A stretch of DNA of 64,000 nucleotides from an uncultured Alphaproteobacteria bacterium (GTDB lineage: Bacteria; Pseudomonadota; Alphaproteobacteria; HIMB59; GCA-002718135). Below the pieces are notes generated by a model, which saw only the letters and a program-made list of their open reading frames with translations, had not been told where the DNA came from and did not search any database. Location of the stretch: the NCBI GenBank assembly GCA_902574475.1, contig CACGNZ010000002.1, forward strand, positions 18,161 through 82,160, read 5' to 3'. This document shows positions 24,817-56,143 of this stretch, one piece after another. The position numbers were made by a program, and so were the translations under genes. Position 1 is the first letter of the stretch, and every line of letters starts with the position of its first letter.

Positions 24817-24891
24817 TGGCGGTCTCGTAGGGACTCGAACCCCAAATCCATGTTCCGAAGACACGTGTGATATCCATTTCACCACGAGACC
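24817..24891 (-). tRNA. tRNA-Arg, anticodon UCG
   Basis: Hand-folded cloverleaf from GGTCTCGTGGTGAAATGGATATCACACGTGTCTTCGGAACATGGATTTGGGGTTCGAGTCCCTACGAGACCGCCA. The 7-bp acceptor is GGTCTCG/CGAGACC, the D stem GTGA/TCAC, and the anticodon stem CGTGT/ACATG with loop CTTCGGA. The T arm is TGGGG-TTCGAGT-CCCTA, with encoded CCA and an A at D-loop position 20 consistent with Arg identity. Confidence 0.8.
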
Positions 24892-29233: not shown

Positions 29234-30267
29234 TGTTTAATGTAATTGATCAATACAATAGTTTTGTAGAAAATAATTTTATTAAAAAAAATAAAGATCA
29301 AATTGAATTCTTAAAACAAGCAGATAATGTATGGTCATCTTTTAGTAAAACAAAGTTATTTTTTAAGGATAAAATTTTTGAAGGTATTTATCTTTATGGT
29401 CAAGTTGGAACAGGAAAAACATTTTTATTAAATTTATTTTATCAAAATACTAAGATTGGAAAAAAAATTCATTTTAATAACTTAATGAATGAAATACATG
29501 AACAAGTTAAAAAATCAGAAAATAAAGAACTTGCTATTGAAAACTATGTAAAGAATTTAAGTAGAGATTACAAAATAATATTTATTGATGAATTACATAT
29601 TTTTAATATTGTTGACGCATTAATAATAAAAAAAATATTTAATTATTTTTCTAAATATAAAATATTTATATTATTGTCGTCAAATTTTCATCCAGATAAT
29701 TTATATAAAGATGGTTTACAGAGAAATGATTTTCTACCATTTATTGATTTAATTAAAAAAAATTTTTTCCTATATGATATTAGCATTAAAACTGATTTTC
29801 GTCGACAAACGTTAAATCAATCAAAGACATACTTCACACCTATAACAACTGACACAGCAAATGAATTTGAAAAACTATTTAATCGTTTTGTTGATCCCTC
29901 ACATTTAACAACTGTTAAAATTAAATCTAAAAGTCGTGAACTAGAGTTTGATAAATGCACATCAAATCTAATGATGATAGATTTTGAAAATCTTTGTGAA
30001 GTAAATTTTGGTAATGAAGATTATAAAAATATCGCAGATAAATTTAGGTTGGTATTTTTAAAAAATGTTCCTGAATTTGATAATCAGAAAAAAGATTCGT
30101 GCAGAAGATTTATTGGATTAATCGATATGTTATATGAAAATAATTGTTCAATTGTTATTTTAGCGTCAAAACCTATAAATTCATTAAATAATATAGATAC
30201 TCTAGCAGAAGAATTTAAAAGAACTGCTAGCAGATTATATGAAATGACTATAGTAAAACCAGATTGA
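29233..30267 (+). CDS. zapE: AFG1-like ATPase / cell division protein ZapE
   Basis: 344 aa with Walker A GQVGTGKT and Walker B IFIDELH. Confidence 0.8.
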   Translation: MFNVIDQYNSFVENNFIKKNKDQIEFLKQADNVWSSFSKTKLFFKDKIFEGIYLYGQVGTGKTFLLNLFYQNTKIGKKIHFNNLMNEIHEQVKKSENKELAIENYVKNLSRDYKIIFIDELHIFNIVDALIIKKIFNYFSKYKIFILLSSNFHPDNLYKDGLQRNDFLPFIDLIKKNFFLYDISIKTDFRRQTLNQSKTYFTPITTDTANEFEKLFNRFVDPSHLTTVKIKSKSRELEFDKCTSNLMMIDFENLCEVNFGNEDYKNIADKFRLVFLKNVPEFDNQKKDSCRRFIGLIDMLYENNCSIVILASKPINSLNNIDTLAEEFKRTASRLYEMTIVKPD

Positions 30268-31253
30268 TGAAATACATAATCAGATTTTTAGTAAGCACAG
30301 TAGTTTTATTAATAGTAGTTTATTTTACTGCAGGTTTTTATGTTGCTTATCAAATTTTAAAAATAGATCCAACTTGTGGTTTACACGAAGGATCTCTTCC
30401 TAATTCATGGAGTACAACAGTTGATTCACATGAATACTCAATTCTTGCACGACAAAAAGTAAGAGAAAATTTCAACTTTAAGGATTATTATTTAGATGAA
30501 TGGCAAGATGTTTATTTTCAATCTCGTGACCCTGACATTAAGATTAATGGATGGCTGTTTAATTATTTTCCAAATAGACCAATTATAATTATAACACACG
30601 GTATAAGCCCAAATGGTAAATGTAAGTCTGAACCAAATCTTATTGCAAGTTTTTTAGTTAATAAAAAATTTAATGTTCTTACGATAGATTTAAGAAACTA
30701 CGGCCAAAGTGATACTGTAAGTAGTTATGATGATTTAGGTTTAAAGTCATATAATGATATTCTTGGTGCATTTGATTTTTTAAAAAAAATTGGTTTCAAG
30801 TCTAATAGCATTGGATTACATGGAATATCTCTTGGTGCAAGTACATCTATTTTTGCAGCATATGCAGAACCGGAAATACGTGCAGTGTGGGCAGACAGTT
30901 CACTTGCTGAATTTAATATGATTTTAAAAGATGAAATAGCAAGATATGGTCTTGCTATAGAATTTGGGCCAGTAGTTAGTTTAGCTGGAAGAATCTTAAC
31001 TGGAACAGATCCAGGAGAATTGTCTCCAGCCAAAAAATTATCAAAGAAACAATACTATTTTTTTACTCATGGCGACTCTGATACAAGAATCTTAACAAGA
31101 CACTTTAATTATTTTAAAGAATATTCAAATCAAAATAAAATTAATGCTGAGTTTTGGCTAGTTGAAAACTCTTATCATGTAGATGCTATGTTTAAATATC
31201 CCGAAGTATATTCTAAAAAAATGGAAGAATTTTTTAATAAAAATTTAAAGTAG
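30264..31253 (+). CDS. Membrane-anchored alpha/beta-hydrolase
   Basis: 329 aa with an N-terminal TM helix, the nucleophile elbow HGISLGAS (GxSxG) and a late HGDSD block. Confidence 0.65.
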   Translation: MMKYIIRFLVSTVVLLIVVYFTAGFYVAYQILKIDPTCGLHEGSLPNSWSTTVDSHEYSILARQKVRENFNFKDYYLDEWQDVYFQSRDPDIKINGWLFNYFPNRPIIIITHGISPNGKCKSEPNLIASFLVNKKFNVLTIDLRNYGQSDTVSSYDDLGLKSYNDILGAFDFLKKIGFKSNSIGLHGISLGASTSIFAAYAEPEIRAVWADSSLAEFNMILKDEIARYGLAIEFGPVVSLAGRILTGTDPGELSPAKKLSKKQYYFFTHGDSDTRILTRHFNYFKEYSNQNKINAEFWLVENSYHVDAMFKYPEVYSKKMEEFFNKNLK

Positions 31254-31391
31254 GCCGGACTCTAAAACTAGTTTGTACCTTGGCAGACACCTCTCTAGAA
31301 TAAGAAACTCAACTAATTATCAAACGGCGGGTAAGATAATTAAAAATTCTTGGCGTTCCTCCGAAGCTAAGAAACGAGTATTATCCGGCTT
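31252..31391 (+). ncRNA. Candidate structured RNA (unknown class) in the long sdhC-upstream intergenic region
   Basis: The island is about 40% GC by hand count, against a far more AT-rich flank. Nested helices: AGGCCGGA(31252-59)/UCCGGCUU(31384-91); UAAUUAUC(31314-21)/GAUAAUUA(31335-42) with a G-rich 13-nt loop; UUCUUGGC(31347-54)/GCUAAGAA(31366-73) plus UUC/GAA closing a CUCC loop. Two G.U pairs would be A.C on the other strand, so the + strand is favoured. Confidence 0.35.
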
Positions 31392-31583
31392 ATTGAGAGT
31401 AATATCTATCTACTTAAAATTCAAGATTTTTAGTTAAATTTGGCATTAAATTTGCTTGATTTTAATAAAAATTATCACTTTTTATCAACATTTTACAAAC
31501 TTCCATGATAGTAAGAAAAAATAACTAAACCATTAATATTTTGAAATTTAAAGAAAAATACTTACTTATGGAACATAAAGAAT

Positions 31584-31964
31584 ATGAAAAAAATGACTGA
31601 TAATAGACCATTATCACCTCACCTATCTATTCACAAAAGAGTACTGACAGCAGTATTTTCAATTTTTCATAGGATATCTGGAATAGGATTAAGTGTGGGT
31701 GCACTATTAATTTCAATTTGGTTTTTTTTGATTAGTTTTGGTCCTGAATTTTATATTTATTTTGAAACTCTTTCTAAAAGTATTATGTTTAAACTAGTTC
31801 TAATAATCTGGACTGTCGGTATTTTTTATCATTTATTTAATGGATGTAGAAAATTATATTGGTCATTCGGTATTGGAATGGAATTATCTCAAGTATATAA
31901 ATCTGGTTATGCTGTAATATGTTTAACTTTAATTTCTAGTTTAGTTGTCTGGTATTTTGCATGA
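31584..31964 (+). CDS. sdhC: Succinate dehydrogenase cytochrome b556 subunit
   Basis: 126 aa with RPLSPHLSIHK and three TM helices. Confidence 0.85.
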   Translation: MKKMTDNRPLSPHLSIHKRVLTAVFSIFHRISGIGLSVGALLISIWFFLISFGPEFYIYFETLSKSIMFKLVLIIWTVGIFYHLFNGCRKLYWSFGIGMELSQVYKSGYAVICLTLISSLVVWYFA

Positions 31965-54847: not shown

Positions 54848-56143
54848 TTATTCTTGAATTTCATTAAAGAGACTAACACCTTGTACAAGATCAAAGGCTC
54901 TACGAAGTTGATAATCAAGCTTTAACCTTTTTTCAAATTCACTTAATGCATTATCTTCATTACCTTCTAATTCTTCTTCGTTACTTTTATCAAGGGAATC
55001 TTTTAAATCCGACTCAGAAAATCTTTTATAATCAAAAGATTCAAATTCTCCTTGCTCAATAATTATATCTGGAACAATACCCTTACCCTGGATTGATTCA
55101 CCTGAGGGAGTATAATATCTAGCTGTCGTTAATCTTATGCCAGTGAGATTATCACTATTTGAAACTTGAAATGGAATTATTGTTTGTACTGATCCTTTAC
55201 CAAAAGATTGTGTGCCAATAATGATAGCTCTTTTATGATCTTGTAGCGCGCCTGCAACAATTTCAGATGCAGATGCAGAACCTCCATCAATGATTACAAC
55301 AAGTGGTTTACCATTAGTTCTATCAGACTTCTTTGCACGATATCTTTTAATATCTTTTTTATCCCTTCCTCTTGTTGAAACAATTTCTCCTCTTTCCAAG
55401 AATATATCCGTTACCTTAACTGCTTGAGTAAGAAGACCCCCTGGGTTAGAGCGTACATCTAAAACATAACCTTTTATTTGATTTTCTTTTTCAATTTTTT
55501 TTATTGCGTCAAGAAGGCCACTTTCTGTTTGTTCGTTAAAAGATGTTATTCTCAAATATCCAATATTGTTAAGAACTTCACTTTTTACTGATCTAATTTT
55601 TATATAATCTCTAATAATTTCAATCTCAAAGGGTTCAGTATTTGCTCTCGAAATAGTAATTACTATTGGCTCACCTTTATTACCTCTCATTAATTCAACA
55701 GCTTCATTTAGAGTTAGACCAAAAACAGGTGTTTCGTCTATTTGAATAATGTAATCACCTGCAAGAACTCCAGCTTCATATGCTGGCGTATCTTCTATCG
55801 GAGCAATGACTTTCACGAAACCTTCTTCCATGGTTATTTCAATACCTAATCCTCCAAATTTACCCTCTGTATCCATTTGCATTTCTTTAAATACTTCTTC
55901 ATTCATAAAACCAGAATGAGGATCTAAACCCGACAACATTCCATCAATTGCTTTTTCAATTAATTCTTGATCCGTAACCTCTTCTACATAGGATGATCTT
56001 ACCCTGTCAAATACCTGCCCAAATAGATCTAAATATTTATATTTTTCTTCATCTGAAGAAGATCCATATGTTTTAGGTGCAAGAAGTGTAATGAGCGTGA
56101 GCAGTAGTATTACTTTTAAAAATACATTTTTTGAAATTATCAT
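54848..56143 (-). CDS. ctpA: Carboxy-terminal processing protease (S41)
   Basis: 431 aa with a signal peptide, a PDZ region, and the GGSASASEI catalytic Ser block. Confidence 0.85.
   Translation of the reverse strand: MIISKNVFLKVILLLTLITLLAPKTYGSSSDEEKYKYLDLFGQVFDRVRSSYVEEVTDQELIEKAIDGMLSGLDPHSGFMNEEVFKEMQMDTEGKFGGLGIEITMEEGFVKVIAPIEDTPAYEAGVLAGDYIIQIDETPVFGLTLNEAVELMRGNKGEPIVITISRANTEPFEIEIIRDYIKIRSVKSEVLNNIGYLRITSFNEQTESGLLDAIKKIEKENQIKGYVLDVRSNPGGLLTQAVKVTDIFLERGEIVSTRGRDKKDIKRYRAKKSDRTNGKPLVVIIDGGSASASEIVAGALQDHKRAIIIGTQSFGKGSVQTIIPFQVSNSDNLTGIRLTTARYYTPSGESIQGKGIVPDIIIEQGEFESFDYKRFSESDLKDSLDKSNEEELEGNEDNALSEFEKRLKLDYQLRRAFDLVQGVSLFNEIQE

Follow-up and report, generated by a model that had tools for sequence, protein, structure and literature searches.

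What is encoded in the long spacer upstream of sdhC, the first gene of the sdh-mdh-suc-lpd cluster, in uncultured marine alphaproteobacteria of the HIMB59 lineage? The question was raised by a stretch of 64,000 nt from contig CACGNZ010000002.1 (assembly GCA_902574475.1), hereafter called the window, in which a first-pass annotation had singled out an island of about 140 nt at 31252-31391, between an alpha/beta-hydrolase-like open reading frame (ORF) and sdhC. Comparative sequence analysis identifies this island as a genuine, strongly conserved, folded RNA element. It is likely to be a stand-alone gene for a structured small RNA (sRNA) of ~140 nt, encoded on the minus strand and running leftward from sdhC, and the best reading of the element is a new family of stand-alone structured sRNAs outside the catalogued classes.

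Conservation and fold of the island

The spacer between the hydrolase gene and sdhC spans 330 nt (31254-31583). Its first 140 nt, which form the island, have a GC content of 0.37-0.41 as compared with 0.17-0.21 for the remaining spacer, in agreement with the GC-enriched island described by the first-pass annotation. The same annotation saw no credible ORF here, and this was upheld: the sole ORF in the spacer (54 aa, 31273-31437, plus strand) lacks conservation: its frame is interrupted by single-base indels that distinguish near-identical relatives, and a coding role was ruled out on these grounds. The island also folded better than dinucleotide-shuffled controls on both strands, with -35.8 kcal/mol and z = -2.95 for the plus strand (equalled by 0 of 200 shuffles) and -37.0 kcal/mol and z = -2.03 for the minus strand.

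A synteny-based SdhC search yielded 78 loci from uncultured marine alphaproteobacterial genomes, labelled HIMB59, MarineAlpha5 or Pelagibacterales/Pelagibacteraceae and mostly "uncultured Alphaproteobacteria". The element was present at the same site in every one of the 75 genome loci having sequence upstream of sdhC, and these loci had been gathered independently of the RNA sequence. It was 98-100% identical at loci where the SdhC protein was just 71-75% identical, and 72-86% identical where SdhC was 53-65% identical. The RNA was the most conserved part in every divergence bin; in the most distant bin it was 78% identical, as compared with 62% for sdhC DNA, 70% for the 3' end of the hydrolase gene and 55% for the remaining spacer. 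The RNA was still found at metagenome loci whose SdhC and SdhA were 36-39% and ~70% identical, respectively, to those of the window. A homologue search with the SdhC protein returned close relatives only and is of no help on the taxonomic limit of the RNA.

Three blocks were near-invariant across these sequences, given here in the RNA sense: UUUCUUnGCUUCGGAGGAACGCC, CCCGCCG and CUAGAGARGUGUCUGCCAAGGUAC. Metagenomes were scanned with a pattern of two fixed conserved blocks, which was matched by at least 120 marine metagenome contigs (Tara, GOS, JGI). The same pattern gave no match in viral contigs, where a 14-mer scan returned chance matches only. A covariance model, R1, built from an unfitted MAFFT alignment of the genome sequences, detected exactly one copy per locus and no other copy within the 64-kb window.

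The RNA is numbered along the minus strand, position i being window coordinate 31392-i. In the overall layout, the closing stem P1 leads to a three-way junction with P4 and P2, and P2 leads to a second junction with P2a and P3 (Table 1). Paired cells made up 94.9% of the unfitted MAFFT alignment, which covered 48 distinct genome sequences, as compared with 29-46% in slid controls, and none of 500 shuffles matched the observed covariation score. Similar results were obtained with a larger alignment of 98 distinct sequences, drawn from 97 metagenome loci and three others, in which 94.1% of the cells were paired (slid controls, 33-44%), 20 of the 39 pairs changed on both sides, 198 cells were compensatory and no shuffle out of 500 reached any of these measures.

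Strong compensatory changes, the evidence across relatives on which the first-pass annotation had made its proposal depend, were found in P1, P2 and P3. Double-sided changes occurred at five of the seven pairs of P1 (for example C-G to U-A in 25 sequences), with 98.7% of the cells paired; at all four pairs of P2 in the 98-sequence alignment, with 84.7% of the cells paired; and at all eight pairs of P3, whose loop keeps CCCGCCG invariant. The closing stem proposed earlier is thus backed in its core (31254-31260 with 31383-31389), as is the 8-bp hairpin at 31314-31321/31335-31342, which is P3. Past P1, model positions 139-140 (31253-31252) coincide with part of the TAG stop codon (31251-31253) that ends the convergent hydrolase gene.

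The third proposed helix, an 8+3-bp hairpin at 31347-31373, fared differently in its two parts. The hairpin exists as P2a, with its inner 5 bp and loop invariant, and its outer part is conserved but contains a mismatch or internal loop. The P2a block UUUCUUnGCUUCGGAGGAACGCC was unchanged in 75 of 75 genome loci, and the outer pairs varied solely from U-A to U.G. P4 holds an invariant block of 24 nt, and its interior consists of an AGAR/NNN internal loop, a GUGUCU/AGGUAC stem with a tandem G.U and a GCCA loop; CUGG/CUAG variants of the outer stem give G.U pairs on the minus strand alone. A plus-strand hairpin, GUUUGU/GCAGAC, was proposed by RNAfold and was rejected, one of its sides varying freely and the other being invariant.

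Switch-like alternative pairing had also been suggested. The AAGAA/UUCUU pairing performed no better than shuffles. For the CUUGGC/GCUAAG pairing all bases are invariant, hence no covariation signal is possible. The motif GCCAAG occurs twice in the RNA, at positions 108-113 and 38-43 (31279-31284 and 31349-31354 in plus-strand coordinates). The copy in the P4 loop and stem is invariant, and two bases vary in the copy that lies in the 3' strand of P2a. Each is complementary to CUUnGC, an invariant stretch in the 5' strand of P2a, and an alternative or tertiary GCCAAG/CUUnGC pairing in the RNA is possible.

In a subgroup of five loci (L053, L212, L255, L267 and L313), ~30 extra nucleotides are inserted between P1 and P2. 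Those of L053 (2730-2758) can form a small additional hairpin, UCAU/AUGA. The covariance model places the P1 5' arm wrongly in the sequences of this subgroup.

Strand, neighbouring genes and predicted ends of the transcript

The first-pass annotation had stated that G.U pairs favour the plus strand, and the comparison of relatives overturned this. Paired cells amounted to 94.9% on the minus strand versus 84.9% on the plus strand in the unfitted alignment, and to 94.1% versus 82.5% in the larger set. G.U cells compatible with the minus strand alone numbered 454 across 28 pairs, or 258 once the invariant tandem G.U in P4 is set aside, as compared with 16 plus-only cells. The sole plus-strand G.U on which the earlier claim relied, 31352/31368, is G.A in most relatives, and evolutionary series such as U-A / U.G / C-G at the P1 extension are sensible on the minus strand alone. 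The mean minimum free energy was -39.7 for the minus strand and -35.6 for the plus strand, the minus strand being more stable in 41 of 49 homologues, and the RNAalifold energies were -62.5 versus -54.3 kcal/mol. By the asymmetry in wobble pairs, the RNA is assigned to the minus strand.

The strand assignment bears directly on the leading idea of the first-pass annotation, namely that the plus strand encodes a leader, riboswitch or attenuator acting in cis on the sdhCDAB-mdh-suc-lpd operon. Such a leader would explain why the element lies upstream of sdhC, on the same side, at every locus, and the plus strand of the window does fold well (z = -2.95), with the duplicated CUUGGC permitting alternative pairing on paper; but pairing falls to 82-85% on the plus strand and the wobble cells stand 258:16 for the minus strand. 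Moreover, ~190 nt of unstructured, poorly conserved, AT-rich spacer would separate the element from sdhC, and a conserved block that resembles the sdhC promoter lies downstream of the element. Neither a terminator nor a platform sequestering the Shine-Dalgarno (SD) sequence was found on either strand at 31000-31800, no U tract follows the element on the plus strand and no Rfam riboswitch matched. A leader of sdhC is accordingly considered very unlikely, and the present analysis corrects a likely mis-annotation of the element.

The intervening block, TTTTTTTGAA(T/A)TTCTGCAAAAAAAATATACTTA, is conserved across clades at 40-60 nt before the sdhC ATG. It comprises TTGAA(A/T), an A-run and a TATACT-like box, and shares the TTGAA box and the short spacing to TAnnnT with the predicted promoter of the sRNA gene. 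This TTGAA/short-spacing layout may be the usual promoter form of the lineage.

The neighbouring genes were compared in the metagenome loci. sdhC was the divergent upstream neighbour in all 80 loci with enough flank, at a distance from the RNA of 171-282 nt (median, 219). In 75 of 81 loci the hydrolase gene followed downstream in convergent orientation; otherwise this place was taken by an AFG1 ATPase (L228 and L293) or by other genes (L318 and L235). A 3' untranslated region (UTR) element or terminator of the hydrolase gene could be argued from these 75 loci and from the window, where the element begins at the hydrolase stop codon, but in the four hydrolase-less loci just named the RNA is kept beside sdhC, and the rearrangements seen so far keep the element with sdhC and not with the hydrolase. 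The strand evidence, which is for the minus strand, and the lack of a U tract on the plus strand also speak against this reading, whose probability is judged to be minimal.

The element is very probably neither an sdhC leader nor a hydrolase 3' UTR, because the sdhC promoter-like block intervenes on one side and the downstream gene varies on the other. Two marks of an sRNA gene, the absence of coding and the absence of a constant downstream gene, were both observed here, the former from the indels and the latter from the varying convergent gene. A discrete transcript appears to be the best fit among the three options that had been listed earlier (discrete transcript, hydrolase 3' UTR or sdhC leader).

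The predicted ends agree with such a transcript. On the minus strand, 139 of 161 unique sequences have TTGAA at -34/-33 as counted from where the model starts, and a TATAAT-like profile is seen at -13 to -8. At the other end, at least 7 of the 10 bases after P1 were T on the RNA strand in 97 of the 161 unique sequences; past the element on the other strand, the T count was mostly 2-5 of 10. The 5' end of the transcript is probably close to 31390-31389 and its 3' end within the U-rich tail below 31252. Transcription would begin ~7 nt past the TATAAT-like box, with the conserved TTGAAT upstream, run toward the hydrolase 3' end and stop at P1 and the U-rich tail.

These ends could also belong to a minus-strand conditional terminator, formed by P1 and the U tract, that responds to a ligand or factor and controls antisense read-through into the convergent gene. 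The anatomy is aptamer-like: junctions are nested, loops and junction bases are invariant and stems covary; the U tract directly follows P1, and a convergent gene is always downstream. Yet no consistent regulated target is seen, because the downstream gene varies (hydrolase, AFG1 ATPase or others), and neither a ligand candidate nor a supported antiterminator pairing was found. A conditional terminator is therefore unlikely, though less so than an sdhC leader.

Several points weigh against the preferred reading, a separately transcribed minus-strand sRNA gene. With the window sequence alone, the plus strand has the better z score (-2.95 versus -2.03). P2a and P4 are without compensatory changes, being invariant or varying by wobble pairs only. 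The metagenome set was selected by the two fixed blocks, and the alignments with 94-96% of cells paired, that of the 98 sequences included, were model-fitted; the genome set and its unfitted MAFFT alignment are free of both biases. The boxes upstream of the RNA are spaced by 14-15 nt versus the canonical 16-18 nt, and the promoter assignment is kept tentative because of this shorter spacing; the boxes also stand in very AT-rich DNA, where such boxes abound. The clade of the window itself has an interrupted U tract, with only 4 of 10 bases T after P1, and the ~125 nt enclosed by P1 would be an unusual length within an intrinsic terminator. Finally, the existence of the transcript, its ends and its strand are all deduced from sequence, and the functional proposal for the RNA given below is drawn from its anatomy.

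Table 1. Coordinates of the sRNA element, its helices and the flanking features in the window.
Feature	Window coordinates	Strand	Details
Structured small RNA gene (likely)	31252-31391	-	~140 nt; R1 score 163 bits
P1, closing stem		-	RNA 3-9 / 132-138
P1 5' arm	31383-31389	-	RNA 3-9, GCCGGAU; partner 31254-31260
P1 3' arm	31254-31260	-	RNA 132-138, GUCCGGC
P2	31307-31379	-	RNA 13-16 ACUC / 82-85 GAGU; encloses P2a and P3
P2a hairpin	31347-31373	-	RNA 19-29 / 34-45; GGAG loop, bulged C, internal mismatch
P3 hairpin	31314-31342	-	RNA 50-57 / 71-78; 13-nt loop with CCCGCCG
P4 hairpin	31268-31298	-	Outer CUAG/CUAG, RNA 94-97 / 121-124; inner 102-107 / 112-117
Promoter-like region of the RNA gene (tentative)	31399-31424	-	TTGAAT 31424-31419; TATTAC 31404-31399
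U-rich tail	31228-31251	-	Directly after P1; in the window ACUUUAAAUUUUUAUU...; terminator-like, possibly protein-binding
sdhC promoter-like block	31541-31564	+	TTGAAA ... TACTTA; flanked by the RNA gene and the sdhC start (31584)
Alpha/beta-hydrolase-like ORF	30264-31253		Pfam Abhydrolase_1/Peptidase_S9
sdhC	31584-31964	+	Pfam Sdh_cyt

Known RNAs and a candidate mode of action

A search of the whole window against Rfam 15 at the gathering threshold gave no match at the element. When the isolated element was searched permissively in two divergent members, only chance-level matches were obtained, with E >= 0.15 and 11-18 bits as compared with cut-offs of 30-75 bits. The check proposed earlier, Rfam including the 6S models, hence matched no family, consistent with the initial statement that the element could not be assigned to a known class. 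ARAGORN called no transfer-messenger RNA (tmRNA) or tRNA at the element in the window or in 50 loci, its sole call in the window being tRNA-Arg at 24817-24891.

A divergent housekeeping RNA, namely 6S, the signal recognition particle (SRP) 4.5S RNA or a piece of tmRNA, would fit the extreme conservation and the paired 5' and 3' ends. However, no Rfam 15 model, those for 6S, SRP and tmRNA included, was matched at E = 0.1 by the isolated element in the two divergent members, ARAGORN found no tmRNA, and neither a 6S rod nor an SRP hairpin can be reconciled with the branched, covarying fold; this leaves such an identity barely probable. The 6S-like rod drawn in the first-pass annotation likewise clashes with the internal hairpins backed by covariation. 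The likeness to 6S RNA (RF00013) is confined to both being small, stand-alone and highly conserved with paired ends; 6S RNA is a long rod of ~150-200 nt with a central bubble, whereas the element is branched and ~140 nt long. GGAGGAACGCCAAG presumably resembles part of 4.5S RNA. The inner hairpin of P4, GUGUC-UGCCAA-GGUAC (31275-31290), is similar to a tRNA-Gly(GCC) anticodon arm, except that its loop is shorter by one base, and the P3 loop UUCCCGCC (31322-31334) is similar to the 3' acceptor strand of tRNA-Gly; both likenesses are to the E. coli tRNA and are perhaps coincidence.

Among RNAs associated with genes of the tricarboxylic acid (TCA) cycle, the sucA, sucA-II and sucC motifs are 5' UTR elements on the strand of their own gene. 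The element is also located beside TCA-cycle genes, but it is read from the other strand and lies upstream of the predicted sdhC promoter. RsaE and RoxS are TCA-regulating sRNAs with C-rich loops, and the element likewise has a C-rich apical loop (CCCGCCG) that is able to pair with G-rich sites. This RNA was not mentioned in two Breaker-lab surveys or in a Red Sea differential RNA sequencing study.

Structured RNAs of Pelagibacter were found through long, relatively GC-rich intergenic regions, and the candidate motifs of Meyer et al. stand in contexts other than sdhC, namely rhtB, pntA, rnhB1 and SAR11_0636 (PMC2704228). The earlier appeal to this principle holds for the present locus, a structured RNA in a long GC-rich intergenic region. 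The closest in kind are orphan candidates for stand-alone structured RNAs from marine bacteria, such as the SAR11_0636 motif: it too stands in a long, relatively GC-rich intergenic region, in a marine alphaproteobacterium whose genome is streamlined and AT-rich, forms a three-stem junction, was likewise judged to be separately transcribed and is known solely from uncultured or metagenomic sequence (PMC2704228). A multi-stem junction and one highly conserved stem are common to both. The element differs from that motif in its context (sdhC), sequence and fold, and in its much stronger covariation and fixed neighbour.

Targets were sought in the 64-kb window, and no target or partner emerged. The loop complement CGGCGGG occurs at one other site, inside rpmA, which was taken as chance, and duplexes between the sRNA and the sdhC 5' region had z values around 0, no better than shuffles. 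The invariance of whole hairpins, stems included, points to sequence-specific recognition rather than to a single-stranded seed, and because invariance extends to two entire hairpins and one loop, an RNA that acts in trans by binding protein or through a tertiary fold is favoured over a classical seed-pairing sRNA; taken by itself, such a trans-acting role is put forward tentatively. Its likely contact surfaces would be the GGAG, CCCGCCG and GCCA loops. The first two could also pair mutually (CGGAGG with CCGCCG) in a kissing contact, and RNAalifold did pair the loops of P3 and P2a with each other (CGGCGGG/CCUCCG on the plus strand), the bases being invariant.

The RNA and the sdh-mdh-suc-lpd cluster would have a divergent control region in common, which suggests co-regulation, and from this arrangement the RNA may plausibly have a role linked to the expression of TCA-cycle or respiratory genes. 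Streamlined marine alphaproteobacteria have few protein regulators and little spare DNA, so a retained, near-invariant 140-nt RNA is likely to be important. The RNA is widespread in ocean metagenomes, absent from Rfam and constantly placed beside the succinate dehydrogenase/TCA operon. A more speculative and rather doubtful extension is that it represents an unrecognised class of functional RNA with conservation at the housekeeping level, limited to the abundant marine HIMB59/SAR11-like alphaproteobacteria and engaging a core machine. Were this so, candidate roles would include a ribonucleoprotein scaffold, a ligand-sensing RNA or a ribozyme, the machine would be engaged via the GGAG (SD-like), CCCGCCG and GCCA loops, and expression would be coupled to the TCA/respiratory operon through the common divergent control region.

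Other observations around the locus

Two tandem, DnaA-box-like direct repeats, TNTNCACA, were noticed between the two predicted divergent promoters at 31472-31490 (plus strand) of the window and in L202, L246, L318 and others. They typically read TATCCACA-N4-T(A/T)T(C/G/A)CACA on the sdhC-sense strand. Of 90 unique spacers, 61 contained exactly two such repeats, and nearly none occurred on the opposite strand; the clade of the window itself has degenerate copies (TTATCACT...TTATCAACA). A replication origin at this place was considered and rejected, the GC skew showing no switch at 31.4 kb.

The tRNA-Arg(TCG) gene at 24817-24891 (minus strand) is a conserved landmark, lying 1-7 kb from the RNA gene in L201, L235, L318 and others. 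Genes for a major facilitator superfamily transporter, the AFG1 ATPase and the hydrolase are variably lost from the interval, so that no more than ~0.7-1.5 kb separate the tRNA from the RNA gene in L235 and L318.

Elsewhere in the window, the Rickettsia sRNA47 family (Rp_sR47) was matched at 55154-55456 (plus strand) with 63.2 bits versus a cut-off of 60. The match is antisense to a 431-aa ORF (54848-56143, minus strand) and may mirror a conserved coding region rather than an sRNA.

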